Shown here: positions 64 to 58,112 of the stretch, one piece after another | Layout: every line of letters starts with the position of its first letter | Numbering within the stretch: position 1 is the stretch's first letter | NCBI GenBank assembly: GCA_964570105.1 | Contig: CAZMWM010000001.1 | Span: 7,803-71,802 of the forward strand | Direction: 5' to 3' | Length of the DNA: 64,000 bases | From: an uncultured Lachnospiraceae bacterium | GTDB taxonomy: Bacteria; Bacillota; Clostridia; Oscillospirales; CAG-272 | Position numbers and translations under genes: made by a program | The notes under the pieces: model-generated | The model's database searches: none | Told to the model about the DNA's origin: nothing | The model's input: only the letters and a program-made list of their open reading frames with translations

Positions 64-819
64 ATGAAGATACTCGTGCTTAACGGAAGCCCCCGAGGAA
101 ACAGGAGTGCTTCTCTCAAGGTCGCTCGCGCTTTCCTTTCCGGCTACGGAGAGGTGATACCATCGGAGATCGAGACCGTCGAGCTTGGAAAGCTCCGCAT
201 TTCCGATTGCCGTGGCTGTCTGTGCTGTTGGAAAAAGGAGAGCGGCAGGTGTGTGATATCGGACGATATGCAGTCTCTTCTCGAAAAAGTCCTCGCATCC
301 GACATAATAGTTGAGGTATTCCCTCTCTATTTTTTCACGATCCCGTCGCGTCTCAAGGCGTTTACGGACAGATGCATCGCGCTGACATCGGCATATCGCG
401 GCTCGCACGGAGACGGTGTGAACGAGCATTTCATACATTCAATGCGTTACCCGGAGCTTTATGAAAAAAAGCTCATACTCGTCTCGACCTGCGGATATGA
501 ATTTACCGACGATAATTACAACGCCGTAACGGACCAGTACGACCGCATATGCGGTAAAGGCAATTACCTGTCCCTTTTCTGCCCTCAAGGCGGTGTCCTG
601 TCCGAGCAGACGCTTCGAACACAGGTCGACAGATACCTTTTAAAATTCGCCTCGGCAGGCAAGGAGTACGCCGAAAACGGCTCTCTCTCAGCCGAAACGC
701 TCGAGCTTTTAAAAAAGCCCCTTCTCCGTCATCACGCATTTGAAGCGGCACTTAACCGTACGTGGGATACGGACGCGGGACCGTACGGAAACAGCTCGGA
801 CACGGAGGCAAGATCTTGA
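64..819 (+). CDS. Flavodoxin-fold NAD(P)H-dependent FMN reductase / iron-sulfur flavoprotein (Isf-like)
   Basis: The N-terminus MKILVLNGSPRG is typical of the NADPH-dependent FMN reductase / flavodoxin-like fold. The compact Cys cluster CRGCLCCW...GRC resembles the Isf 4Fe-4S motif. The ORF track starts at GTG 49; ATG 64 gives the conserved N-terminus. The stop TGA 817-819 overlaps the TTG start of the next gene. Confidence 0.65.
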   Translation: MKILVLNGSPRGNRSASLKVARAFLSGYGEVIPSEIETVELGKLRISDCRGCLCCWKKESGRCVISDDMQSLLEKVLASDIIVEVFPLYFFTIPSRLKAFTDRCIALTSAYRGSHGDGVNEHFIHSMRYPELYEKKLILVSTCGYEFTDDNYNAVTDQYDRICGKGNYLSLFCPQGGVLSEQTLRTQVDRYLLKFASAGKEYAENGSLSAETLELLKKPLLRHHAFEAALNRTWDTDAGPYGNSSDTEARS

Positions 820-10425: not shown

Positions 10426-10506
10426 TTGGTATGGATAAGAGCGCGGATTAACGCTCACTGCTCGCTCCAAATAAACATATATTCTCGGAAAGGACATCAA
10501 CAAACC

Positions 10507-11322
10507 ATGAACGCTCAAAAGGTATTTTTGCGCAATTCCCCGTGCGAGATATCGCTCACTCCGGTGCTTTGCGATCCGCGAGTCGGAACGCGGGACGCCA
10601 TTCTCGTGATCCCCGGCGGAGGTTACAGCGTCATATGCGACGACCGCGAGGGCTTCCCCATAGCGATGGCATTTGCCGCAAGAGGTATGAATGCATTCGT
10701 GCTGAAATATTCCGTTGGAAAAGAAGCCGCGGAGCATCAGCCGCTCGTGGACGCCTCACTCGCCATGGCTTACATACGGAGCCACAGTGCCGAATATTCC
10801 ATCGATCCGGAAAGGATAGCCACGGTCGGATTTTCCGCGGGCGGTCATCTTTCAGGCTCGCTTGGCTGTCTTTGGCATCTGCCCGATATCGAAAAACGCT
10901 CAGGGATAGCTCACGGAGAAAACCGCCCGATCGCCACCGTTATGGGATACCCCGTAGTAAGCGCGATAGACCATCCCCATTCGGGATCGTTTTACAATAT
11001 TCTCGGCACGAGCGAGCCGAGCCGCGAGGAGCTTGAAAGATATTCGCTCGAAAAGCACGTGGACGCTCTCACAGCCCCTGCATTTCTGTTCCACACAGCC
11101 GCGGACACCTGCGTTCCCGTACAGAACTCGCTTGCATATTGCCGTGCGCTCGCTGATGAGAAGATACCGTTCGAGCTTCATATATACCCGACCGGAGAAC
11201 ACGGCATCGCGCTCGCTAACTGCGTAACGGACCGCGGAGGCGAGGATCGCCCCGAGGTTGCCCGTTGGGTGGACGACGCTATAAGATTTATCCGCTCCAT
11301 CCCCTCAAAACAGACCGTTTAA
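10507..11322 (+). CDS. Alpha/beta-hydrolase esterase (acetyl esterase/lipase-like)
   Basis: Has the GFSAGGH nucleophile elbow (GxSxG), an upstream VIPGGGY oxyanion region and a C-terminal His context (GEHGI). ATG 10507 is preferred over the track's start at 10426. Confidence 0.8.
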   Translation: MNAQKVFLRNSPCEISLTPVLCDPRVGTRDAILVIPGGGYSVICDDREGFPIAMAFAARGMNAFVLKYSVGKEAAEHQPLVDASLAMAYIRSHSAEYSIDPERIATVGFSAGGHLSGSLGCLWHLPDIEKRSGIAHGENRPIATVMGYPVVSAIDHPHSGSFYNILGTSEPSREELERYSLEKHVDALTAPAFLFHTAADTCVPVQNSLAYCRALADEKIPFELHIYPTGEHGIALANCVTDRGGEDRPEVARWVDDAIRFIRSIPSKQTV

Positions 11323-11345
11323 GCTCTCGAAAAGGAGGTACCGAT

Positions 11346-12374
11346 ATGTCGGAGACAGTCAACGAATACGAGTTTCACAAGCTTCCCTCTCAGCCCTTTG
11401 CCATACACGGACTGTATGCACCAGAGCTTGGATCTCCCTTCAAGCGTTTACCGGACGACGTAGCCCAAGCTACAAGCAACGGAGTTTTCGGACTTAGAAA
11501 AAACACAGCCGGCGGACGCGTAAGATTTGAGACGGACTCGGAATATATCTGCGTAAAGCTCAAGGGAGCGCCTACGTATTTTGACCATATGACGCTTCTC
11601 ACGAGCCACGGATGCGATCTCTACCGCGAAAACGAATACGGAGAACAGAGCTTTGTCGGTCGCTTCGCAATTCCACTTCAAAGCAAAGGGGATTATATCT
11701 CAAACAGGCTCTCCCTCGGCGGCGGCAAAAAGTATCTTGTTATCAATATGCCGCTGTACGGAAACGTCGACGAGCTGTCCGTGGGGCTTGCCCCGGGAGC
11801 GACCGTCGGGGCGCCCCTTCCGTACCGTCACACGGAGCCGATAGTTTTCTACGGCTCGTCGATAACACAGGGCGGTTGCGCTTCAAGACCGGGACTGTGC
11901 TATGAAAACCATATCAGCCGCGAGCTTAAGACGGATTATATCAACCTTGGATTTTCCGGGAACGCACGCGGAGAGGAAGCTATTGTAAATTATATGGCTT
12001 CGCTCGATATGTGTGCATTCGTTTCCGACTACGACCACAACGCGCCATCCCCCGGACATCTTGAGAGCACGCATTTCAAAATGTACGAAACCGTCCGCTC
12101 CGCGCACCCGAGCATTCCGTACGTAATGATAAGCCGCCCGGATATACTGCTTAGAGATCAAGACGCGGTAAAACGCCGAGCTATCGTTATGGAAAGCTAC
12201 TTAAAGGCGCTGAACTCGGGCGATAAAAATGTATATTTCATAGACGGATATTCATTGTTCGAAGGCGGAGACCGAGACTTCTGCACGGTCGACGGATGTC
12301 ACCCCACAGACGTCGGATTTTTGCGTATGGGCAAGGTCATCGGAGACGTCCTGCGCACCGCACTCAAATACTGA
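11346..12374 (+). CDS. SGNH/GDSL hydrolase with N-terminal accessory domain (carbohydrate esterase-like)
   Basis: Block I is FYGSSITQG and block V is DGCHPTD (DxxH). An RBS (aaggaggt) precedes ATG 11346. Confidence 0.8.
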   Translation: MSETVNEYEFHKLPSQPFAIHGLYAPELGSPFKRLPDDVAQATSNGVFGLRKNTAGGRVRFETDSEYICVKLKGAPTYFDHMTLLTSHGCDLYRENEYGEQSFVGRFAIPLQSKGDYISNRLSLGGGKKYLVINMPLYGNVDELSVGLAPGATVGAPLPYRHTEPIVFYGSSITQGGCASRPGLCYENHISRELKTDYINLGFSGNARGEEAIVNYMASLDMCAFVSDYDHNAPSPGHLESTHFKMYETVRSAHPSIPYVMISRPDILLRDQDAVKRRAIVMESYLKALNSGDKNVYFIDGYSLFEGGDRDFCTVDGCHPTDVGFLRMGKVIGDVLRTALKY

Positions 12375-12411: not shown

Positions 12412-13092
12412 ATGAATAAGCATATCGAAGAAGTGGTAAGACAAAAAATAGAACGCACCGCCACAGCACTCAAGAAGCACGGCTTTGAGGTCTACAGAGC
12501 GGAGGACAGATGGGGTGCCGCGGATATAGTCGAAGGACTGCTTGAAAAGGGCTGTACGATCGGCGTCGGCGGCTCCGCAACGCTCGACGAATGCAGTATA
12601 CTTGAGCTTGTGCGCAGACCGGAATACCGTTTTATAGACCGCTATGAGCCGGGACTCACGCGAGAAGCCGTCAACCGCCGCAACATAGAAGCGTTGGGTG
12701 CGGACGTATATATCACCGGCTCGAACGCCGTTACCGAGGACGGATTTCTTTACAACGTGGACGGAAACGGAAACCGCGTAGCCGCCATCGCCTTCGGACC
12801 TGCGAGCGTTATAGTGATCGTGGGAAGCAATAAGATCGTGCGCGATCTCAACGAAGCGATATTGCGCGTAAAATCAACCGCTGCACCCGCAAACAGCAAA
12901 CGCCTTTCGTGCGAAACGTACTGTGCCTCGGAAGGCAGATGCGCTTCGCTCGCAGATCCGCTGAAGGCACCGATGCTCGGTCAAGGCTGTAGCTCCGATA
13001 CACGCATATGCTGTGACTATCTGATATCCGGTCCTCAGCGTAACCGCGGACGGATAAAGGTAGTTATCGTTGAGGAGCCGCTCGGCTTTTAA
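12412..13092 (+). CDS. LUD-domain (LutC/YkgG-like, DUF162) protein
   Basis: Carries the GVGGSATL and ITGSNAVTEDG patterns typical of lactate-utilisation LUD domains. The C-terminus is Cys-rich. Confidence 0.65.
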   Translation: MNKHIEEVVRQKIERTATALKKHGFEVYRAEDRWGAADIVEGLLEKGCTIGVGGSATLDECSILELVRRPEYRFIDRYEPGLTREAVNRRNIEALGADVYITGSNAVTEDGFLYNVDGNGNRVAAIAFGPASVIVIVGSNKIVRDLNEAILRVKSTAAPANSKRLSCETYCASEGRCASLADPLKAPMLGQGCSSDTRICCDYLISGPQRNRGRIKVVIVEEPLGF

Positions 13093-13149
13093 GCTATCCC
13101 TCTCGCGCCGTCAAAGCTGCGGCTCTGCTCTAAAATGCCGTTATAGCAA

Positions 13150-13195
13150 GCGTGACTGCTTCGGATATTACGTCCGAGGCAGTCACGCATTTTTC
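13150..13195 (+). terminator. Rho-independent terminator
   Basis: A 16-bp stem, gcgtgactgcttcgga with tccgaggcagtcacgc (one G-U pair), followed by a ttttt run. Confidence 0.65.
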
Positions 13196-13210
13196 GTTAC
13201 AGATAACGGC

Positions 13211-15394
13211 TCACTTGGTATATCCTTGGAGATACGACTTGTAATCGCCCCAGAAATAGTTGCCGACGTATTCGACGTAATATTCACCGTTTACGTATAT
13301 CTTCAGATCATCGTTACCCTCGCCCACGGCAAGTTCTGCGTCCATATCGTTGGGCACGCTTATATCACCCGGATGCTTTGACAGCGGAACATATACGCCC
13401 GTCAGCTTTTTCGCTCCCGAGAACGCACCCGCCTCGATACTGCCGATGTTTTCCCCAAGATAGATCGTCTCAACAGACGAGTCACTGAAAGCGCCCTTCG
13501 ACAGTATAACGACGGGATAGCTGTTTCCGTCATTTGGATCCACGACGTTATCCGGTATCCTAAGCACGGTCTGCGTCTTTCCGGCATCATTCAGTCCGAT
13601 GACGCTCCACATTATATCGCCGTTTTTATTCACCACCAGTTCAAGCTGTAGATACAAGTTTTCTTCCGCATCACCGGATGAGATGATAGGGGCAAAGCCG
13701 GACGGTCCCGGAAGCTCCTTTGCGGACACCGTGACCGACGTATCGCCACGCTCACGCTTGATATCGTCTATCAAATGCACCGTCCTGACGGTAACGCCGC
13801 TGTCATTGAGATGAAATTCCGAGTCAAAGAAGTACCCTTCATCCATAATATAGTCGTTTATATTGCTTATGACCTTGCAATCCAGATACTTGCAAAGATT
13901 TTTGTAAAAGCTGTAGATATTATCCTCCGTGCAGGATGCCGTCATCGCCATCTCGTTCATCGGAGCAAAGCTGAAGTACACCGTGGCACCTTGCTTCTCG
14001 CACCACGCCGTATAATCATTCACGTAGCTTATAAACTGCTCATATTCGCTCGTTATACTGTCATCCGGTCTCACTCTGAAATCAAGCGATATGGTCTTTG
14101 CGGTGGAGGATGTGATGTTGTACTTACGCTCGTACGTATTATCACCGTATTCGTTAAACCACCGTTTTTCGTACGCTCCGCTGTTCGTTGGACGTTCACC
14201 CGAACACAGGTATTTCAGCTTTTCCGCGGAAAATTGCCACAGCGCTCCTATCAGAGCCTCGTAATCGTCGCTATCAACATTATTTAGCATCCGCCAATTT
14301 CCATCCATCGCTTGAAGAGCTGTCTCGGCGTTGAAATACAGCGACAGCGTTTGCGAATTAAGCTCCGGAGCTAAGATCACGATATCGCCCTTGTTTATGT
14401 TGACCTTGGAAAGATCCATCATAAGCTTGGTACCGAGATTCGCGTAAAGTCCGAAATCCACGACCTTCATTCCAAGCTCTTCTTCTATCATTTCACTGTC
14501 AAGACCGAAAGGCACCGAGCTACCACCAACGACTACTATCTTCGGCGCATTGACCGTTTCAAGACGCTCGTATTTATCTGCCAAAACTCCGACGAACGTC
14601 TCGTCGTAAACGGCAGGAAGCGCGAAGGATATAACGCACACCACCGTTATAGGCAGGATAAATATTGCAAACAACGCGGCAAACACCCCATAAAACCACT
14701 TCGGAGAGCGGTGTGCGTTTTTCGCTCTTAGGAGTGCCTCGTCCTCCAAACGCTTTCTCTCCGCTTCTGCGGCTGCCTCATTTGCGAGCATTTCCTCAAG
14801 CATGCGACGTTTTTCCTCGTCGGCTCTCAGCGCCTCTTCCCTCTCCGCCGCGGCTATCTCAGCCGACCGATCTATACGCCGTCTGTCCTTCGTCGGATCC
14901 CATTCTTCTATCACACGGTATCCGGCAACGGTCTCAACGTCGACATCACTGCGTAACAGGTTTTCCGCGACGACCTTTTTTATCTCCGCACTCAGCGGAT
15001 CATTTTCATCTATTTTGAAAAATTCTTCGTTGAACACCTCGCACAGCTTGTCAAGCGCTTGAAAACAATCCCTCACCGCCAACGGAGCGGTCACGATGAG
15101 CAGTCTGTAAACGACGTAACGCGCGGGCGAAACGTACACAAACAGGCGATCCTTCGTACACGCGCGGTTCCAGCGCCGTATCACACCGAGCATCCAGAAT
15201 ATATAATACAGCCCGAGAGTAAGCACGCTGAGCACGGCTTCCTTTCCGCCGAAGCGCGTGTGCTCGCCGTCACCCCAACAAGCGACCTCGGTATCCCTCG
15301 CAATATCCCCGGCGGCAAAAACGCCGTACAAGCCGAGCGTTATAACGTTCAAAAGCACGTGTTTGAAAACGGATCTTCTTTCTTCAAGAAGCAT
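13211..15394 (-). CDS. Multidomain membrane protein: DUF4234-like 2-TM N-terminus, charged coiled coil, TM anchor, SGNH/DltD-like domain, BspA-type LRR
   Basis: The N-terminal LNVITLGLYGVF / LSVLTLGLYYIFW pair is DUF4234-like. Aa ~175-225 are E/R/K/A-rich. A TM helix spans aa ~232-260. The GGSS block lies at aa 290-293 and FDSEFH at aa 523-528. The C-terminal KGAFSDSSVETIYLGENIGSIEAGAFSGAKKL matches an LRR_5-like pattern. Confidence 0.75.
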   Translation of the reverse strand: MLLEERRSVFKHVLLNVITLGLYGVFAAGDIARDTEVACWGDGEHTRFGGKEAVLSVLTLGLYYIFWMLGVIRRWNRACTKDRLFVYVSPARYVVYRLLIVTAPLAVRDCFQALDKLCEVFNEEFFKIDENDPLSAEIKKVVAENLLRSDVDVETVAGYRVIEEWDPTKDRRRIDRSAEIAAAEREEALRADEEKRRMLEEMLANEAAAEAERKRLEDEALLRAKNAHRSPKWFYGVFAALFAIFILPITVVCVISFALPAVYDETFVGVLADKYERLETVNAPKIVVVGGSSVPFGLDSEMIEEELGMKVVDFGLYANLGTKLMMDLSKVNINKGDIVILAPELNSQTLSLYFNAETALQAMDGNWRMLNNVDSDDYEALIGALWQFSAEKLKYLCSGERPTNSGAYEKRWFNEYGDNTYERKYNITSSTAKTISLDFRVRPDDSITSEYEQFISYVNDYTAWCEKQGATVYFSFAPMNEMAMTASCTEDNIYSFYKNLCKYLDCKVISNINDYIMDEGYFFDSEFHLNDSGVTVRTVHLIDDIKRERGDTSVTVSAKELPGPSGFAPIISSGDAEENLYLQLELVVNKNGDIMWSVIGLNDAGKTQTVLRIPDNVVDPNDGNSYPVVILSKGAFSDSSVETIYLGENIGSIEAGAFSGAKKLTGVYVPLSKHPGDISVPNDMDAELAVGEGNDDLKIYVNGEYYVEYVGNYFWGDYKSYLQGYTK

Positions 15395-15429
15395 AGCTTA
15401 GATTCCTTTCTTCAAGCCGTAGCAAGATA

Positions 15430-16917
15430 TCAGAATTGGAAGTATATGAACGAGCTTGCGACGTCGGATGATAACAGTATCAACCAAGCGGCGGCAATAG
15501 ACCAGCAAACGCAAACACACGCCGAAGCTCTTGAAGGATCGAGGAGCGTTTCCGAGCCGTCCATATCCGGAACGGTGTTTATCTGCGTATCGAGTGCTCG
15601 TAAAAGTATAACGGAAAGCACCGTCGTGATAAGACCGATCGCATCCATTCCGATAGCGCCAAAAGCCGCACCGAACGAAAAGTTGCCCCAGCCGGTAAAT
15701 ACCGTGGTAAACAGCACCTTGAGATCGTACATACTGTTTGCGCGGAATATCATGAAAGCAAGGCTCACAAGCGCGAACGTCCCTATTCTTCTCAGCCAAG
15801 TCATCACCGCACCGTTTTCGTTTACCCCCATCCTCGCGAGCAGACGCGATCTCGGCTCTGACGTAAGCTTACCGACTATTTGATACACTCCGTGAACGAC
15901 GCCCCAAAGCACGTACGTCCACGCCGCACCGTGCCAAAATCCGGACACCAAAAACACTATCATTATGTTTCTGAAATGCTTTGCCCTCGAGCAACGCGAG
16001 CCACCGAGAGGTATGTATATGTAATCCGTAAACCAAGACGTGAGCGAGATGTGCCAACGTCTCCAAAAGTCCTTTATGCTCGTGGCGGAAAAGGGATCGT
16101 TGAAATTCTGCATCAGCCTTATTCCCATCACCCTCGAGCAACCTATCGCGATATCGGTATATCCCGAAAAATCGCAATATATCTGTATTGTGAACATCAC
16201 CGTGGCAAGTATGACCGTAAATCCGTTTACCAGCTCCGAGTTTACCGTATCGGCGTTATTGTAAACTATATCGACGTACTTCGACAGCTGATCTGCGACC
16301 GCTATCTTTTTGAAAAATCCGACCATCATAAACTTCAGACCGACTATCGTATCATTGACGTTGAACGGATTTTTCGTTTTCAGCTGCGGAAGCAGGTTTT
16401 CCGGGCGCTCTATAGGACCGGCGACCAGTTGCGGAAAAAATGAAACGTAGAGCGCGTAATATCCAAAATGACTCTCAGCCTTGATGCTTCCTCGGTAAAC
16501 GTCGATAACGTACGAAAGCGTCTGAAAGGTGTAAAAGGATATTCCCACGGGAAGGATAAGCTCAAGCGTCATATCCGGAGCCGAAATTCCGATCAAGTTC
16601 AACAAGTCCGAAACGCTTTCGGCAAGAAAATTGAAATACTTGAAGAAGAACAGGACAGCAAGGCTCGCGATCACCGCGACCAGCATAAAGAATTTCTGTT
16701 TTTTCCGCTCTCCTTCGTATTTTTCTATCATAAGAGCGCAGAGGTACGACACCGCGGTCGTAAATCCTATCAGATATATAAGATCCGCTTGCCAGCTCAT
16801 ATAAAACATCAAGCTGACCGCAAGCAACATCACCCACCGCGCCTTGAGCGGCAGTATCCTGTATAAGAGCAAGACTATCGGGAAATACAGCAGAAACGCA
16901 AAAGAATTGAATACCAT
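15430..16917 (-). CDS. MBOAT family O-acyltransferase (AlgI/DltB/PatA-like)
   Basis: A polytopic 495-aa protein with the hallmark FWRRWHISLTSWFTDYIYIPLGGS His motif. Confidence 0.9.
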   Translation of the reverse strand: MVFNSFAFLLYFPIVLLLYRILPLKARWVMLLAVSLMFYMSWQADLIYLIGFTTAVSYLCALMIEKYEGERKKQKFFMLVAVIASLAVLFFFKYFNFLAESVSDLLNLIGISAPDMTLELILPVGISFYTFQTLSYVIDVYRGSIKAESHFGYYALYVSFFPQLVAGPIERPENLLPQLKTKNPFNVNDTIVGLKFMMVGFFKKIAVADQLSKYVDIVYNNADTVNSELVNGFTVILATVMFTIQIYCDFSGYTDIAIGCSRVMGIRLMQNFNDPFSATSIKDFWRRWHISLTSWFTDYIYIPLGGSRCSRAKHFRNIMIVFLVSGFWHGAAWTYVLWGVVHGVYQIVGKLTSEPRSRLLARMGVNENGAVMTWLRRIGTFALVSLAFMIFRANSMYDLKVLFTTVFTGWGNFSFGAAFGAIGMDAIGLITTVLSVILLRALDTQINTVPDMDGSETLLDPSRASACVCVCWSIAAAWLILLSSDVASSFIYFQF

Positions 16918-16959
16918 AAAAGCCGAATACGCTCCCTTCGTTCCTTTATATCACTCACA

Positions 16960-17277
16960 TCACTTTTTATACTTTTTCCGGATACCCGTCGCGACCATGG
17001 CGGAGGTAGCTGACATCAACAGCGCAAGAAACAGCTCCTCAGGCTCTACCGCGCTCAGAAGAGCACAGCAGAACACGGCAAGGTGCAATACACCGTTTAC
17101 GATACACGTTATCCAAACGCCCTTTCTCACCTTTTCCGAGGACGTATCGAACGTGGCGTCGCGTCCGCCGCAAATCATAGGAAGTAGCACACCGACAAAA
17201 TGCAGTATCACGATGATGCCCGACGCAACGTACATCCCAACGCGAGAAAATATAAGCTCTATCACTGTCATCTTCAC
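16960..17277 (-). CDS. Small integral membrane protein (3-4 TM), function unknown
   Basis: A 105-aa hydrophobic ORF packed between the MBOAT gene and the lipoprotein gene on the same strand. Confidence 0.55.
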   Translation of the reverse strand: MKMTVIELIFSRVGMYVASGIIVILHFVGVLLPMICGGRDATFDTSSEKVRKGVWITCIVNGVLHLAVFCCALLSAVEPEELFLALLMSATSAMVATGIRKKYKK

Positions 17278-17297
17278 TCCGTTCCTTTGACCTGATC

Positions 17298-19379
17298 TTA
17301 TTCGGAGATGCTGTCAAGGTATTCACCGAGATCGCGAAGCAACGTCTCCGTCCTTATGCTTGCACCCTCAAGGGTGCAGTGCCATATGCTGTCATAAAAA
17401 TATTCGTGCGCATATACGTAATCTCCGACATTCGATATCACCGGATATTTCAGCTTTTCCGAAAAATATTTAGTGCAGTGATCGTACGCCGCCTGATTTC
17501 TGCTACCCTCAGCCACCGCCCCTATATCGAGCGTGGGAAAGCTTCCGAGCATGATACCGCCCTTTGAGACTATGATATCGTTCACTTCGTTGAGCCGAGC
17601 GGCGTTAACGTCGCTGAGATAGCTTCCCGGAGATAAGAAATTATAATTTCCACTCGCGGTAAATCCCCTGTTCGTGATCCTGTTCGTAACAAGATCTCCG
17701 TATTCGTTCATGCTTGAAACGGCACACTGATAATCGTATTCGACATTTCCGCGAATTCCCTGAGCTTCCTTGTACGCTCCCCAGAAATTCGTAAATTCCG
17801 TCATATCCACCTCGCGGAATATGTCATAGCACTGCTCGTTTGCCCTAAATAGCTTCCACTCGATCCTGTTGCTTCCGAGCGTCGTCCCTCCGTATTCCCC
17901 GGCGTGGATCACGATATCCCCTTCACCCACGTAATTGGCGATGACCTTAAGATAGAAATAGCTCGGTGTTCCGGCGTTCGTACCGTAATTCACTATCGTA
18001 TGGTCGGGATAAGCCTCCTGAAAACGTTCGCTCAGCATACCGTTAAGAGTCGAGGAGCCGGATACCACGACCAGCATCTTGCCGGGAGCGGTCTTTACCC
18101 GCTCGTACTTTATGCAGAATGCACCTTCGGCTTCCTTGCTGTAATACGGCAGACGCTGTGAGTTCAGCACTACCGTCGAAAGCTTTCCGCAACCGTTGAA
18201 CGAATCGTTCGAGACCTCGGTCACCCCGTCAAACAGCACGAGCTGCTTCAACCTCGAACAACCCTTGAACGCATCGTTCGCCACTGTCTTGACGGTATCG
18301 GGAAGCACCACCGTCTTTAGAGCCGTGCTTAAGAACGCATTACCGAGAACAGCGACGACGGGCTTACCGTTATAAGACTCGGGAATGACCGCCAAGGAGC
18401 CTTTACCACTGAAAAAGCTCAGAGCATAACCCTCTCCGTACGCTTGGAATTTCAGCTCACTGTTCGGGGAGACCTTAGCCCAGACAACCCAAAGCTCGAG
18501 ATATCCGGTATCCTGCGGCACGACGCAGACACCGCCCATATTCGAAAAACCGGGTATATCGTTCACGGTAGTGTAATCCTCAAAAACGACAGGCTCGGTG
18601 CTGTACCCCACAGCTATGTATCCTTCACGCGTAAACGTCCCATTGGAATGGAGCGTATTACGGCAGGTATATTGACTTTTGGCGGCAACGGAAACGGTGA
18701 GCCGATCTCCCCCACTCTCCGTCACCGTACCTCCGTTTGCATGGTAGGTGATGTAATGCTGATCCGCAATGTCGTAATTGGCGTACAGCTTCACGCTCTC
18801 GGTCATTTCGAACGAATATTCAAGCTCTTCACTTATCAAGGTACCGCCATCCATGAGGTACGAGCCGACAGACCAGCCGATAAAGCTGTATACCGGCGTC
18901 TCCTGCGCGGTAACGACAGCAGTATCGCCGACATTGTAGCATCCGCCGTACTCGGAGTTGTCACTCACCAGCATAGAGAGCGGAGCTTTGCATTCGAGCA
19001 AGAGCATCTTACTCGGGCATATCGTATAAAATTCGACCGTGGTCGGGTACTTTAAATTATAAAGCACGAGGGTGCCGCTGGATTCACTGTACCGAGCGTT
19101 CGCCGAATTTCCCAGGTAGACGTAGCCGTCCTTGATGTTGACCTTAAATTCAACACTCTTTCCGGGAGACACCTCAACGGAGGACGCACCCTGTATCTCG
19201 ATCCCGTCGCTCTCCTTGATGCTCACACGTATCTTCGGCAAGCTCTCTTCCCCGTGCGTCGTCTGCTCAAATAAGCACGACGACAAAAGACAGACCGCCG
19301 CCAAGGCGGCAAGCGACCATACAAGTGCGATACACACCCGACAGAGACGACGTTTCGATACATACACAGCTCTTCTCAT
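17298..19379 (-). CDS. Lipoprotein: Listeria/Bacteroides-repeat and BspA-type LRR domains plus SGNH/DltD-like domain (paralogue of the 13211-15394 catalytic domain)
   Basis: Has a signal peptide with lipobox LLSSC (Cys35). A B-repeat-like block reads YHANGGT...REGYIAVGYSTEP. The LRR_5 block is GNAFLSTALKTVVLPDTVKTVANDAFKGCSRLKQL. The SGSS block is at aa 440-443 and YDSIWH at aa 662-667. These catalytic blocks align with the 727-aa protein. Confidence 0.8.
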   Translation of the reverse strand: MRRAVYVSKRRLCRVCIALVWSLAALAAVCLLSSCLFEQTTHGEESLPKIRVSIKESDGIEIQGASSVEVSPGKSVEFKVNIKDGYVYLGNSANARYSESSGTLVLYNLKYPTTVEFYTICPSKMLLLECKAPLSMLVSDNSEYGGCYNVGDTAVVTAQETPVYSFIGWSVGSYLMDGGTLISEELEYSFEMTESVKLYANYDIADQHYITYHANGGTVTESGGDRLTVSVAAKSQYTCRNTLHSNGTFTREGYIAVGYSTEPVVFEDYTTVNDIPGFSNMGGVCVVPQDTGYLELWVVWAKVSPNSELKFQAYGEGYALSFFSGKGSLAVIPESYNGKPVVAVLGNAFLSTALKTVVLPDTVKTVANDAFKGCSRLKQLVLFDGVTEVSNDSFNGCGKLSTVVLNSQRLPYYSKEAEGAFCIKYERVKTAPGKMLVVVSGSSTLNGMLSERFQEAYPDHTIVNYGTNAGTPSYFYLKVIANYVGEGDIVIHAGEYGGTTLGSNRIEWKLFRANEQCYDIFREVDMTEFTNFWGAYKEAQGIRGNVEYDYQCAVSSMNEYGDLVTNRITNRGFTASGNYNFLSPGSYLSDVNAARLNEVNDIIVSKGGIMLGSFPTLDIGAVAEGSRNQAAYDHCTKYFSEKLKYPVISNVGDYVYAHEYFYDSIWHCTLEGASIRTETLLRDLGEYLDSISE

Positions 19380-19476
19380 ATGCGCAAGCTCCCTTTCAGA
19401 TGGCAGGACGATCTACATTATATCCAAATACCGCCATCATTGCCGAAGTTTAAGTTTATAAGTAATAGCTGTACTG

Positions 19477-19505
19477 ATTATACATTATTTATCGCTGTTT
19501 GTCAA
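19477..19505 (-). promoter_or_regulatory. Consensus sigma70 promoter for the MBOAT operon
   Basis: The minus strand reads TTGACA, a 17-nt spacer, then TATAAT. On the plus strand tgtcaa is at 19500-19505 and attata at 19477-19482. Confidence 0.55.
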
Positions 19506-19719
19506 TGATTTTGTGATAATTTTTCGTCTTTTTGCCCCACAACGTTTCCGAGGCACGATTTGTTTTGTTAAATTTAAACAAATCCCCCGCTTCAACGTCC
19601 GCGCCGAAGCTCAGACATCTCATCTGTCCGCGTCCGGATCCCGAGCTATTTACAGCAAATCTGTACATAACATCACAAAAAATTTCGCGTAATACGGTAC
19701 ACTTTTTTTCAAAAACCCC

Positions 19720-19748
19720 TTGACAAAACAAAAAAAGTGTGGTATGAT
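19720..19748 (+). promoter_or_regulatory. Sigma70 promoter for infC-rpmI-rplT
   Basis: TTGACA (19720-19725), a 17-nt spacer, then an extended -10 TGgTATGAT (19740-19748). Confidence 0.55.
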
Positions 19749-19749
19749 A

Positions 19750-19917
19750 ATGCAGTAAAAAGAAGCAGAACGCTCTGTTCTCACCTCACGACGCTAAAGT
19801 CCAAGGGTAAAGATCGACCGCACGTATGCGTTACGTGTGTGTTGCTTTGCGGTGAAGTTCTGTTTCTTTACCGCTTTTTTGTTTTCAAAACTCAATGAGA
19901 CTTGGAGGTGTTTCACT
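19750..19917 (+). promoter_or_regulatory. Putative L20-leader-type 5' UTR with attenuator hairpin
   Basis: A ~165-nt leader upstream of infC. It contains the hairpin gcggtgaag...ctttaccgc (19848-19873) followed by a T-run (19874-19885). The position and terminator logic match the Firmicute L20 leader, but I cannot verify the covariance model by eye. Confidence 0.45.
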
Positions 19918-20472
19918 ATTATTAAGAACTCTAATTCTAACGGAAAAGAGCATGAGATCAACGACGCTATCGGCTTTCCCGATAATAAAAATGTCCGTTT
20001 GATATCGGACGGTGGAGAGCAGTTTGGCATAATGACCTTTTCTAAGGCGCTCGCACTCGCATACGAGCGTGATCTTGACTTGGTGCTTATGAGCGCTCAG
20101 TCCGATCCGCCGGTATGCAAGCTTATGGATTACGGCAAATACCGTTTTGAGCGCGACAAGAAGGAAAAGGAAGCCAAAAAGAAGCAAAAGACCGTAGAGA
20201 TCAAGGAGATACAGCTCACTTGCCTTATCGATACGAACGATCTTAACACGAAGATAAATCATGCTCGCCGCTTTCTCGCAGACGGAAACAGAGTTCGTGT
20301 CATGGTGAAGTTCAGAGGACGCCAGATGGCGCGTCAGGAAGGCGGACACCAGCTCCTTGAGCGTTTCTGTGCCGCATGCGCAGATCTCGGCTCACCGGAA
20401 AAGGCTCCGGTTTTTGAAGGCAGGAATATGATCACGTTTATAGCTCCGGTCAAGCAGACCGCGGCAAAATGA
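19918..20472 (+). CDS. infC: Translation initiation factor IF-3
   Basis: The IF-3 sequence reads IIKNS...EINDAIGFPDNKNVRLISDGGEQFGIM...VCKLMDYGKYRFE. ATT codons lie at 19918 and 19921, 7-10 nt after GGAGGTG (19904-19910). A non-AUG (AUU) start is the known autoregulatory feature of infC. The track's upstream ATG 19837 extension is Cys/Phe-rich nonsense. Confidence 0.9.
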   Translation: MIKNSNSNGKEHEINDAIGFPDNKNVRLISDGGEQFGIMTFSKALALAYERDLDLVLMSAQSDPPVCKLMDYGKYRFERDKKEKEAKKKQKTVEIKEIQLTCLIDTNDLNTKINHARRFLADGNRVRVMVKFRGRQMARQEGGHQLLERFCAACADLGSPEKAPVFEGRNMITFIAPVKQTAAK

Positions 20473-20486
20473 AAGGAGATCCAGTA

Positions 20487-20681
20487 ATGGGAAAGATCAA
20501 AACGCACAGTGCATCATCCAAAAGATTCTCTGTAACCAAAGGCGGCAAGGTGAAGTTCAACCATATGAACCGCCGTCATAAGCTTGGACACAAGACGTCG
20601 AAACGCAAGAGAGATCTGCGTCAGAACGCTTACATGAGCGAAGCAATGGCATCCAACATCAAAGCGATGCTCCCTCGCTGA
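20487..20681 (+). CDS. rpmI: 50S ribosomal protein L35
   Basis: Sequence MGKIKTHSASSKRF...KRKR. An RBS (aaaggaga) precedes ATG 20487. Confidence 0.9.
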   Translation: MGKIKTHSASSKRFSVTKGGKVKFNHMNRRHKLGHKTSKRKRDLRQNAYMSEAMASNIKAMLPR

Positions 20682-20712: not shown

Positions 20713-21066
20713 ATGGCAAGAGTTAAAGGCGCTGTTATGACGCGCAAGAGAAGAAATAAAGTTCTTAAGGCAGCAAAGGGTTATTGGGGCGCAAAGTCCA
20801 AGCATTTCAGAATGGCTAAGCAAGCCGTTATGAAGAGCGGAAACTACGCTTTCATCGGCAGAAAGAGCAAGAAGAGAGACTTCCGCCGTCTGTGGATCAC
20901 CAGAATTTCCGCACAGGCTAAGGTAAACGGTCTCAACTATTCCACGTTCGTATGCGGACTTAAAAAAGCCGGTATTGACCTCAATCGCAAGATGCTTTCC
21001 GAGATCGCCATTGCTGACAAGGCGGCGTTCGCTGAGCTTTGCGACAAAGCAAAGGCGGCTCTTTAA
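20713..21066 (+). CDS. rplT: 50S ribosomal protein L20
   Basis: Sequence [29 protein letters not shown]... Confidence 0.95.
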
Positions 21067-56618: not shown

Positions 56619-56647
56619 TTGACATTTGCAAAAAAATGTGATATAAT
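56619..56647 (+). promoter_or_regulatory. Consensus sigma70 promoter of the plus-strand sugar-activation operon
   Basis: TTGACA (56619-24), a 17-nt spacer, then TGaTATAAT (56639-47). The ATG follows at 56691 with an RBS (gaaaggacg). Confidence 0.6.
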
Positions 56648-56690
56648 GTACCCGAAAAAGGAAATCGATCAACAGAAAGGACGATCTGCC

Positions 56691-58112
56691 ATGGAATATA
56701 TCGATGTACACGCGACCGCAAAGCTCTGGAATCTGCCGGAACGCAGAGTCACCGCTCTTTGCCGTAGCGGACGCATACCGGGCGCTAAAAAAGACGGCAA
56801 GCTTTGGCTCATACCCGACGACGCCGAAAAGCCTCTCGACGGGCGCACGAAAGAAAGCGCTTCCGCCACGCTTGCAAGCTCCTCTCCTGCGATATTTACC
56901 ACTACCACCAATTATGCGGAAACCGGAGCGGCCTTGAACGCGCGAAACAAATTTGAAGCCACTTACCGCAAGAGTGCCGAATACTCAGCTTTCACCCCTT
57001 ACCGCATATGTCCGCTCGGCGCTCACAGCGACCATCAGCTCGGCAAGATAACCGGATTTGCCATAAACAAGGGCATACATATCGCTTACGGTCCCAAGCA
57101 GAATGGGGTGATCGAGATAGCATCGCTCCAATTCCCCAAGCGTGCGCAATGGCACGTCTCCTCCACACCGAAGGAAAAGCAGAACGATTGGGCTGACCAT
57201 CTGAGAGGCGCCACCATAGCACTGAACAGCCGTTACCCACTAAGTGTCGGTCTCTGTGCGATAATCGACGGAGAGCTTCCCATAGGCGGTCTTTCCTCGT
57301 CCGCCGCCGTAATAATCACCTTCCTTTCGGCACTCTGCCACCTGAACGGCATTAACCTTTCCGAGCAGGAGCTTATAACCATCTCGAAGGAAGCCGAAAA
57401 TAAGTACGTCGGCGTTTCGTGCGGAAAGCTCGATCAATCCTGCGAGGTCTACTGCCGCAAGGATCACCTGCTTTATATGGATATGCGCGATGACAGCTAC
57501 GAGCTTATCCCCACCGCCCCATCGATGAAGCCGTACAAGATCGCCATCTTTTTTTCCGGACTTGAGCGCAGTCTCGCCGGTAGCAAATTCAATATGAGAG
57601 TGGACGAATGCCGTTCCGCCGCGTACGCACTGAAGGCATTCAGCGGAATGGAATACGGCAAATTCGAAGAGACCAACCTCCGCGACGTTCCGTACGAAAC
57701 ATATCTCGAGCACCGCGACAGACTTCCGGAAAATTGGAGAAAGCGTGCGGAGCATTGGTACACGGAGTTCAGACGCGTTGAAGCCGGCGCGGAAGCTTGG
57801 AGACGCGGCGATATAGAGGCATTCGGGCGCCTTTCCTCCGAAAGCGGTCATTCCTCGATATACAATTACGAGACCGGCTCTCCCGAGCTTAAAAAGCTTT
57901 ACGAGATAATGATGCACACTGACGGAATATACGGCGGACGCTTCTCCGGCGCAGGCTTCAAGGGGTGCTGTATGGCTCTGATAGCGCCTGAATTCGAAGA
58001 GAGCATCCTCGAAAACGTCAAGCGCGAATACCTTAACGCCTTCCCCGAGCTTCGCGATAAGTATTCAGCCCACGTATGCCACACGGCAGACGGCGTTCGC
58101 TTAAACAAATAA
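56691..58112 (+). CDS. GHMP-family sugar-1-kinase (galacturonate-kinase-like) with N-terminal excisionase-type HTH
   Basis: Aa 1-45 (IDVHATAKLWNLPERRVTALCRSGRIPGAKKDGKLWLIP) form an HTH_17-like domain. The core has YRICPLGAHSDHQLG, which I recall from the plant GalAK family, and the GHMP motif PIGGLSSSAAV. Confidence 0.75.
   Translation: MEYIDVHATAKLWNLPERRVTALCRSGRIPGAKKDGKLWLIPDDAEKPLDGRTKESASATLASSSPAIFTTTTNYAETGAALNARNKFEATYRKSAEYSAFTPYRICPLGAHSDHQLGKITGFAINKGIHIAYGPKQNGVIEIASLQFPKRAQWHVSSTPKEKQNDWADHLRGATIALNSRYPLSVGLCAIIDGELPIGGLSSSAAVIITFLSALCHLNGINLSEQELITISKEAENKYVGVSCGKLDQSCEVYCRKDHLLYMDMRDDSYELIPTAPSMKPYKIAIFFSGLERSLAGSKFNMRVDECRSAAYALKAFSGMEYGKFEETNLRDVPYETYLEHRDRLPENWRKRAEHWYTEFRRVEAGAEAWRRGDIEAFGRLSSESGHSSIYNYETGSPELKKLYEIMMHTDGIYGGRFSGAGFKGCCMALIAPEFEESILENVKREYLNAFPELRDKYSAHVCHTADGVRLNK

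Follow-up and report, generated by a model that had tools for sequence, protein, structure and literature searches.

A clostridial MBOAT cassette with paralogous SGNH-like partners fused to leucine-rich repeats, a candidate envelope O-acylation machine

In the systems that have been studied, envelope acylation by MBOAT and SGNH proteins controls resistance to lysozyme and antimicrobial peptides, autolysis, S-layer anchoring and immune recognition. In PatA/PatB systems, known from Neisseria gonorrhoeae and Campylobacter jejuni, the MBOAT PatA auto-acetylates the Tyr of its own C-terminal FxYxxF motif from acetyl-CoA, and the acetylated FIYANF peptide serves as donor to PatB (PMC12148441). In MBOATs of carrier-less pathways this motif sits on two extra transmembrane helices that have no counterpart in DltB, and in the Dlt pathway it is carried by the microprotein DltX (PMC12148441), whose C-terminus in L. 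plantarum is FIYNEF (PMC13653941). Gram-positive pairs of an MBOAT and an extracytoplasmic SGNH-superfamily protein acetylate wall or matrix polysaccharides, namely the Bacillus secondary cell wall polysaccharide (PatA1/PatB1) and clostridial cellulose (CcsH/CcsI) (PMC12148441, PMC9487903). Here we describe a four-gene operon, p1-p2-p3-p4, in a stretch of 64,000 nucleotides (the window) from an uncultured Lachnospiraceae bacterium (GCA_964570105.1, contig CAZMWM010000001.1, positions 7,803 to 71,802). It encodes a predicted lipoprotein (p1), a small membrane protein (p2), an MBOAT (p3) and a larger membrane protein (p4) that is paralogous to p1, and on analogy with the systems above it is likely to be an MBOAT/SGNH machine for envelope O-acylation that works through an acyl shuttle.

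The locus resembles PatA/PatB in the FxYxxF tail of its MBOAT, placed on two extra transmembrane helices (FIYANF in NgPatA, FIYFQF here), in the absence of a carrier protein, which implies an acyl-CoA donor in both, and in a membrane-anchored extracytoplasmic partner of predicted SGNH fold with a Ser nucleophile (PMC12148441). It differs in that the partners do not belong to the DUF459/PatB family, that there are two paralogous partners (one to six in other cassettes) fused to leucine-rich repeats (LRRs) or B-repeats, that a conserved microprotein with three transmembrane segments is present, that the cassette holds no Ape1-type esterase gene, and that the hosts are Clostridia (Firmicutes). 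Likeness to the Dlt system lies in the gene order, since a small membrane protein, an MBOAT and a transmembrane-anchored SGNH-like predicted transferase follow one another as in dltX-dltB-(dltC)-dltD, and in p4, which has a single transmembrane segment directly before its catalytic domain as DltD does (p1 has a lipobox instead). Here, however, the shuttle motif is on the MBOAT and not on the microprotein, p2 has three transmembrane segments and lacks FxYxxF, DltA and DltC are missing, the catalytic domain is about 70 residues shorter than that of DltD, and there are LRR fusions and a further paralogue that is a predicted lipoprotein.

The AlgI/AlgJ/AlgF/AlgX and WssFGHI systems likewise combine one MBOAT with two SGNH-like proteins, of which one is anchored in the membrane and the other has a binding module, and with a fourth small protein (PMC9487903, PMC12148441). 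The function of AlgF is given as unknown (PMC9487903), and p2 in turn matches no known family. Unlike the locus described here, which has no conserved polysaccharide-synthesis neighbour, the Alg and Wss genes lie within exopolysaccharide synthesis operons, and unlike its partners, PatA1/PatB1 and CcsH/CcsI show neither LRR fusions nor paralogue expansion. Full-text literature searches for DltD-like, DltB-like or AlgI-like proteins together with BspA found no papers, and a broader search on MBOAT, SGNH and LRR returned only known PatAB, Wss and Ccs work and SGNH reviews. The chemistry is that expected from PatA/PatB, DltB/DltX/DltD and AlgI/AlgJ/AlgX; what is new is the family of the partners, their fusion to LRRs and B-repeats in both orders, the several paralogous partners per MBOAT and the conserved three-segment microprotein.

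The operon, its MBOAT and the conserved cassette

A sequence-only reading of the window had described four minus-strand open reading frames (ORFs) behind a consensus promoter, encoding a lipoprotein, a 105-residue protein with several transmembrane segments, an MBOAT and a large membrane protein, with no DltA/DltC-like carrier, and these points were all borne out. The ORFs span 13211-19379 with spacers of 20, 42 and 35 nt, an AAGGGAG ribosome-binding site precedes the p1 ATG, and the promoter is a perfect match to consensus (Table 1), its exact pattern occurring twice in the window against 0.02 expected from shuffles. Genes for DltA- or DltC-like proteins (AMP-ligase, carrier) were found neither in the flanks within the window nor as conserved neighbours of cassettes elsewhere, and the rest of the 64-kb window yielded no further copy of the catalytic domain or of the MBOAT. 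Three points go beyond that reading: the FIYFQF tail of the MBOAT, the nearly constant position of the 105-residue gene upstream of the MBOAT, and the occurrence of p1-type genes in zero to five copies.

The MBOAT assignment of p3 rests on PF03062 (118.6 bits, cutoff 27, E=4.7e-34) and on DltB structures 6bug and 8jem (E~5e-29, 105 bits). The sequence-only reading had taken FWRRWHISL as the mark of the family; its His289 is indeed conserved and aligns with RWHMS in DltB 6bug, but the counterpart of the catalytic His336 of DltB (GFWHGITW) is His329, which lies in GFWHGAAW. We considered whether p3 is DltB proper and rejected this, its score on the DltB equivalog TIGR04091 being 172.9 bits where the cutoff is 375, and DltA and DltC both being absent nearby. 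Homology to DltB stops at residue 392, and beyond it hydropathy places two hydrophobic segments (residues ~416-444 and 463-491) and the C-terminal hexapeptide FIYFQF, which fits the FxYxxF acyl-shuttle motif with its Tyr at position 492. The same hexapeptide is C-terminal in 69 of 70 orthologous MBOATs, and the remaining one ends in FIYVQF. By every feature that can be computed from its sequence, p3 is a predicted member of the motif-fused class of MBOATs, of the PatA/AlgI kind.

Relatives of the p4 catalytic domain (D4-type) are numerous: a word-indexed search retrieved 846, typically of about 500 residues with the transmembrane anchor first, and an exhaustive profile search with the catalytic domains of both p1 (D1-type) and p4 collected 4,574 clusters at 50% identity with E<=1e-3, 2,749 of them with E<=1e-10. 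Scanning one genome per species with D4-type proteins as bait gave 187 stretches encoding a relative, from which 80 non-redundant loci were kept, all of them in metagenome-assembled genomes (MAGs). By their labels, 79 come from Clostridia of gut, rumen or digesters (Oscillospiraceae, "Ruminococcus sp.", Eubacteriales, Lachnospiraceae, Eubacterium sp. CAG:841), and the remaining one from Gastranaerophilales. The neighbourhood, which the sequence-only reading had proposed to check, is conserved: the order [D1]0-5 - small protein - MBOAT - D4 is kept in about 70 of the 80 loci, in different species. An MBOAT lies immediately upstream of the D4-type gene in 70 of 80, and at least one D1-type gene is present in 54 of the 61 loci with room upstream, in zero to five copies. 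In 51 of these 54 loci the MBOAT is separated from the last D1-type gene by an ORF of 72-131 residues with about three transmembrane segments, and such an ORF also stands directly upstream of the MBOAT in 15 of 15 further cassettes, including ones without an upstream D1-type gene. Even a short D4-type protein without LRRs (368 residues) keeps this arrangement. The recurrent core of the D4-baited loci is thus small protein, MBOAT and D4, and the D1-type proteins are a variable accessory.

Several loci depart from the common layout. Fusion variants (L006, 3366-7034; L008, 3084-6794; P0226-P0230; L013, L019-L023, L027 and L029) include D1-type proteins of ~1,220-1,240 residues with two catalytic domains, proteins of ~1,000 residues with two matched stretches, and D4-type proteins of 730-960 residues in which a long insertion separates the catalytic domain from the C-terminal LRR. 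In a MAG from roe-deer caecum (GCA_017452525.1; L002, 9520-13653) two more D1-type lipoprotein genes, of 681 and 683 residues, follow the D4-type gene, and L030 has a run of five D1-type ORFs, some of them fragments, ahead of the MBOAT; in the D1-type paralogues of these two loci Asn replaces the Asp before the catalytic His (YFYNSxYH). A few kilobases upstream of the cassette, two further loci encode a second, divergent MBOAT in the opposite orientation (L059, 275-1681, and L069, 494-2068, both on the minus strand), one of which ends NAFLYFRF, a variant of FxYxxF, and the other without such an ending.

The paralogous partners p1 and p4

p1 and p4 share a domain of about 290 residues (BLASTP, 25% identity over 306 residues, E=8e-15), and the alignment contains all three sequence blocks on which the sequence-only reading had based their paralogy. 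That reading had also seen that the order of LRR and catalytic domain is swapped between the two proteins, and this is upheld: in p1 the LRR_5 match (PF13306, residues 347-408, 41.7 bits, cutoff 27.7) precedes the catalytic domain, in p4 the LRR follows it. For p1 the LRR is further supported by LRR proteins in the PDB (4gt6, E=1e-21, and also 4fs7). The p4 sequence alone gives a sub-threshold LRR_5 match (residues 632-668, 16.6 bits), with support at the level of the family, since 50 of 61 relatives match LRR_5 and the family profile matches 4gt6 with E=1e-21; the top Foldseek matches of the p4 model are likewise LRR proteins, among them 4oju.

Sequence searches left the catalytic domains outside known families. 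Those of p1 and p4 had no match in Pfam, NCBIfam or the PDB sequences, 61 D4-type and 70 D1-type relatives scanned singly gave no above-threshold match for the domain, and the D4 family profile run against the PDB matched no DltD chain and nothing over the catalytic domain. The DltD family PF04914 appeared in one of the 61 D4-type relatives (E=0.22), in neither p1 nor p4, and not among the families listed for the 70 D1-type proteins. Hidden Markov models (HMMs) of AlgX/AlgJ (PF16822), DHHW/PatB1 and DUF459/PatB gave no match, and their structures do not occur among the 50 best Foldseek matches of the p1 or the p4 model described below. Since HMM membership in the DltD, AlgX, DHHW and DUF459 families fails, the partners should not be filed there. 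The sole family of the SGNH clan (CL0264) with a sequence signal is DUF1574 (PF07611), which matches about 50 residues over block I in 9 of 70 D1-type proteins at a sub-threshold level (best E=0.006, E=0.12 for p1; 12-18 bits against a gathering score of 29.1). DUF1574 is itself uncharacterised, neither its function nor its structure being known (PMC9487903). By sequence, the partner enzymes look like a candidate further SGNH-like family with DUF1574 as its nearest, weak neighbour, one that is large and unannotated and has neither a Pfam model nor a structure.

The fold was addressed with AlphaFold2 models built on family alignments and compared with the PDB by Foldseek. Both models are confident, with a predicted local distance difference test (pLDDT) of 93.5 and a predicted template modelling score (pTM) of 0.86 for residues 225-727 of p4, and a pLDDT of 94.0 and a pTM of 0.93 for residues 400-693 of p1. 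The p4 model matches DltD (7dxm_B, E=1.7e-3, Foldseek probability 0.98, template modelling (TM) scores 0.28/0.34; 6o93, probability 0.94) and the SGNH esterases 3c1u, 1deo, 2o14 and 2hsj (probability 0.98-1.0). The best match of the p1 model is rhamnogalacturonan acetylesterase 1deo (E=1.4e-5, probability 1.0), and it also matches YxiM, 2o14, Axe2, the C-terminal domain of OatA (6vjp) and PAF-AH; DltD 6o93 reaches E=0.068 and a probability of 0.41. In these comparisons generic SGNH esterases score equal to DltD or better. TM-scores for the catalytic-domain matches are about 0.3-0.55, low enough to indicate that the modelled fold is SGNH-like but divergent. As modelled, then, the catalytic domains of p1 and p4 have a divergent SGNH-like fold that is no nearer to DltD than to generic SGNH enzymes. 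Of the SGNH/DltD-like label given in the sequence-only reading, the SGNH part is supported by the models, and the DltD part has fold matches of the same order as those to other SGNH proteins and no HMM match.

Aligning 149 catalytic domains together (81 D4-type and 68 D1-type) placed the putative active-site residues, whose numbers in p1 and p4 are given in Table 1. The Ser of block I is invariant and forms Gly-Ser in 148 of 149 domains, the Gly of block II (Asn-x-Gly) is present in 148, and the His in all 149. An Asp (p4 Asp337) is near-invariant, as is Tyr-Gly-Asp (p4 residues 416-418, p1 residues 560-562), and the Glu of a Pro-Glu (xPE) motif is invariant and occupies the position of the canonical block III Asn. 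Ser, Gly, Glu and His follow in the same order as Ser74, Gly104, Gln133 and His376 of L. plantarum DltD (PMC13653941), and their equivalents in the short D4 form are at about Ser68, Gly91, Glu120 and His304. The Ser/Asp/His triad that the sequence-only reading had put forward for checking is supported as to Ser and His but not in full as to its acid, the Asp being the fourth residue back from the His (D-x3-H, as in DSEFH and DSIWH; p4 Asp524) and not the third as in the canonical DxxH; it is invariant in D4-type domains but D or N, often Asn, in the D1-type, and the assignment of the triad acid is uncertain.

Two individual positions deserve mention. Block II of p4 reads VVDFG, with Asp313 (codon 14456-14458) where 80 of 81 D4-type domains, including the closest relative at 80% identity, have Asn (VVNFG), which could reflect either a change particular to this strain, at a residue of the active-site region that hardly varies, or an error of assembly. 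p1 has HAGE in place of HAPE, a variant common to all its close relatives.

Anchors on both partners place the catalytic domains outside the cytoplasm. The N-terminus of p1 (MRRAVYVSKRR...AAVCLLSSC) has a basic start, a hydrophobic core and a lipobox, and a pattern search picks out a lipobox-like Cys in 52 of 66 D1-type proteins, to which inspection by eye adds most of the others; a hydrophobic anchor precedes the catalytic domain in 79 of 80 D4-type proteins, most of which start with it. p4 departs from this last pattern in an N-terminal extension (residues 1-230, 14705-15394) that comprises DUF4234 with its two transmembrane segments and a Glu/Arg/Lys/Ala-rich stretch of about 90 residues, probably a cytoplasmic coil; the extension is confined to the closest relatives (L004, L005, L012 and L023).

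The small protein p2 has about three hydrophobic segments, the third of which is immediately preceded by an acidic EPEE stretch, and it matched nothing in Pfam or NCBIfam. Proteins of its type are weakly conserved in sequence, their main conserved feature being an acidic residue pair before the third transmembrane segment (E/D at residue 81 in 85%). A role for p2 as a DltX-like acyl carrier was considered and rejected, since it lacks a C-terminal FxYxxF and has a basic C-terminus, probably on the cytoplasmic side.

A proposed acyl shuttle and its alternatives

The gene order, domains, folds, invariant residues, shuttle motif and synteny are observed; from them, and on analogy with described systems, we infer each chemical step of the following route, as well as its donor and its acceptor. 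p3 would take an acyl group from a cytoplasmic acyl-CoA, most likely acetyl-CoA because the operon encodes neither a carrier protein nor a ligase, and its His329 would move the group onto its own Tyr492, on the tail carried by the two extra transmembrane helices at the outer face, a step proposed because the motif is that of PatA and DltX. The acyl-Tyr tail would then swing into an SGNH-like active site and acylate its Ser (Ser292 of p4; Ser442 of p1, directly or indirectly), with the invariant His (p4 His528, p1 His667) as general base, and the enzyme would hand the group on to a hydroxyl of an acceptor outside the cytoplasm. In this scheme p4, whose gene lies directly downstream of the MBOAT gene in the D4-baited loci, would be the transmembrane-anchored partner, comparable to DltD, and p1 a lipid-anchored accessory paralogue. 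The B-repeats and LRR of p1 and the LRR of p4 probably serve to place the enzyme or to select its acceptor, and p2 probably stabilises the membrane complex as the transmembrane helix of DltX does.

The MBOAT/SGNH O-acylation reading, which had already been drawn from the sequence, gains support from the folds, the invariant Ser and His, the shuttle motif, the short spacers behind a single promoter, the synteny and the carrier-less MBOAT of the PatA/AlgI kind, and it is the one we favour as likely. Several points weigh against it. The evidence consists of sequences and models, and the hosts are uncultured MAGs. By sequence the catalytic domain falls in no SGNH Pfam family, its fold matches are distant, and its active-site residues were placed by alignment and not from model coordinates. 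The active site itself is unusual in the invariant Glu where block III canonically has Asn, in the D-x3-H spacing with an Asp that is frequently Asn in D1-type domains, and in the Asp that the p4 of the window has where nearly all D4-type domains have Asn. Because the loci were found with D4-type proteins as bait, the constant presence of D4 is partly true by construction. Finally, all-against-all clustering of the flanking ORFs of the 80 loci revealed no acceptor-synthesis or carrier gene conserved beyond the cassette, the next cluster being a generic ABC-ATPase-like protein in 14 of 80 loci.

The two partners may, as the sequence-only reading inferred, be differently targeted transferases working in parallel. 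The first alternative is a relay, in which the MBOAT tail acylates p4 only and p4 passes the group to p1 or its paralogues and these to the polymer, as in AlgI to AlgJ to AlgX. The D4-type gene adjoins the MBOAT gene and is single-copy beside zero to five p1-type genes, p1 carries extra binding modules comparable to the carbohydrate-binding module of AlgX, and with AlgJ and AlgX, too, one MBOAT is served by two SGNH-like proteins, of which one is membrane-anchored (PMC9487903). Yet about 6 of the 61 loci with room upstream lack an adjacent p1-type gene, so that in these cassettes p4 must be able to complete the reaction alone; p4 usually has an LRR domain of its own, and transfer from enzyme to enzyme has not been demonstrated in any such system in the literature covered. 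We therefore consider a relay unlikely, if the strongest of the alternatives.

Less probable again is a division of labour in which p4 is the acyltransferase and p1 an esterase that trims the acyl groups, comparable to Ape1 beside PatA/PatB or DltE beside DltD. Esterases are the majority of characterised SGNH proteins, the best fold matches of p1 are acetylesterases (1deo and Axe2), with DltD a weak match, the esterase Ape1 is encoded in the PatA/PatB operon (PMC12148441), and the esterase DltE interacts with DltD (PMC13653941). Transferases and esterases are not separable by fold match, however, and p1 and p4 have in common the family-specific invariant residues, including the unusual block III Glu, which suggests the same chemistry in both; a housekeeping eraser would also hardly be expected in as many as five p1-type copies whose N-terminal modules diverge.

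We see a somewhat smaller chance still that the LRRs and B-repeats direct the enzymes to protein or exogenous targets, such that surface proteins or host or dietary glycans (mucin) would be acylated and not the cell's own wall polymers, with the zero to five D1-type paralogues as diversifying heads on one MBOAT acyl source and the three-segment microprotein as a new obligatory subunit. That p1 and p4 are LRR surface adhesins, with the SGNH-like domain a non-catalytic binding or scaffold module and the MBOAT independent of them, is very improbable: BspA-type LRRs and Listeria-Bacteroides repeats are typical of adhesins and no HMM puts the domain in an enzyme family, but Ser and His are invariant in 149 domains with further near-invariant positions nearby, short forms without LRRs hold the same cassette position, and linkage to a shuttle-motif MBOAT is strict.

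If the acyl-shuttle reading is right, the cassette would carry MBOAT/SGNH chemistry into a large and entirely uncultured group of gut and rumen Clostridia, and its varying number of partners would be a natural experiment on the ability of a single acyl-Tyr shuttle to supply several transferases. LRR domains are usually read as adhesins in these genomes and are here fused to predicted enzymes; the source names of the retrieved homologues are nothing more specific than "hypothetical" or "leucine-rich repeat protein", and many genes of gut Clostridia bearing the latter name may encode envelope-modifying enzymes.

Feature positions and neighbouring genes

Table 1. Positions of the cassette features within the 64-kb window
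Feature	Residues	Position (nt)	Strand	Basis or remark
Promoter TTGACA-17-TATAAT		19477..19505	-	sigma-70 consensus 12/12; ~98 nt 5' of p1 ATG
p1 (D1-type), predicted lipoprotein	693 aa	17298..19379	-	ORF and domain searches
p1 signal and lipobox	aa 1-35	19275-19379	-	LLSSC, Cys35
p1 B-repeat-like region	aa ~36-300	18480-19274	-	weak Flg_new_2
p1 BspA-type LRR	aa ~301-405	18165-18479	-	LRR_5, LRR structures
p1 predicted SGNH-like catalytic domain	aa 406-693	17301-18164	-	model; Ser442, Gly466, Asp488, Glu495, His667
p2, three hydrophobic segments	105 aa	16960..17277	-	ORF, hydropathy
p3, predicted MBOAT of PatA/AlgI kind	495 aa	15430..16917	-	PF03062
FIYFQF hexapeptide codons of p3	aa 490-495	15433..15450	-	FxYxxF acyl-shuttle motif
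p4 (D4-type), membrane protein	727 aa	13211..15394	-	ORF, domain searches, model
p4 DUF4234	aa 7-68	15191-15376	-	domain search
p4 charged predicted coil	aa ~140-230		-	
p4 transmembrane anchor	aa 231-264	14603-14704	-	hydropathy
p4 predicted SGNH-like catalytic domain	aa 265-560	13715-14602	-	model; Ser292, Gly315, Asp337, Glu344, Asp524, His528
p4 LRR-type C-terminal domain	aa 561-727	13214-13714	-	family-level LRR_5, Foldseek
G+C-rich hairpin, 17 bp, between the convergent p4 and LUD-domain genes		13150..13188	.	likely bidirectional terminator

The hairpin beyond p4 has a T-run on the plus strand and a weak one on the minus strand. An Rfam scan of 12900-20100 found no leader or riboswitch in the 5' untranslated region of the cassette; its sole match was the L20 leader (RF00558) of the divergent infC operon at 19757-19888 on the plus strand (39.5 bits, E=3.3e-5, below the gathering score of 58.7). 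This match lies 5' of infC (19837-20472), rpmI (20469-20681) and rplT (20713-21066), and is preceded by a promoter-like site at 19720-19748 (plus strand, 11/12, extended -10) that diverges from the cassette promoter.

Just beyond the end of p4, two plus-strand esterase genes (10426-11322 and 11265-12374) converge with the cassette. One encodes a BD-FAE/alpha-beta hydrolase and the other a GxDLY plus Lipase_GDSL_3 (SGNH) protein, which is probably cytoplasmic because a signal peptide or transmembrane anchor would not fit beside its Pfam match. The pair is not syntenic with the cassette in other genomes, and its closeness is thus probably coincidental.

The only other perfect TTGACA-17-TATAAT site in the window, at 56619-56647 on the plus strand, overlaps the TTG start assigned to an ORF of 497 residues (56619-58112); because promoter and assigned start coincide, the true start of this ORF probably lies further downstream.

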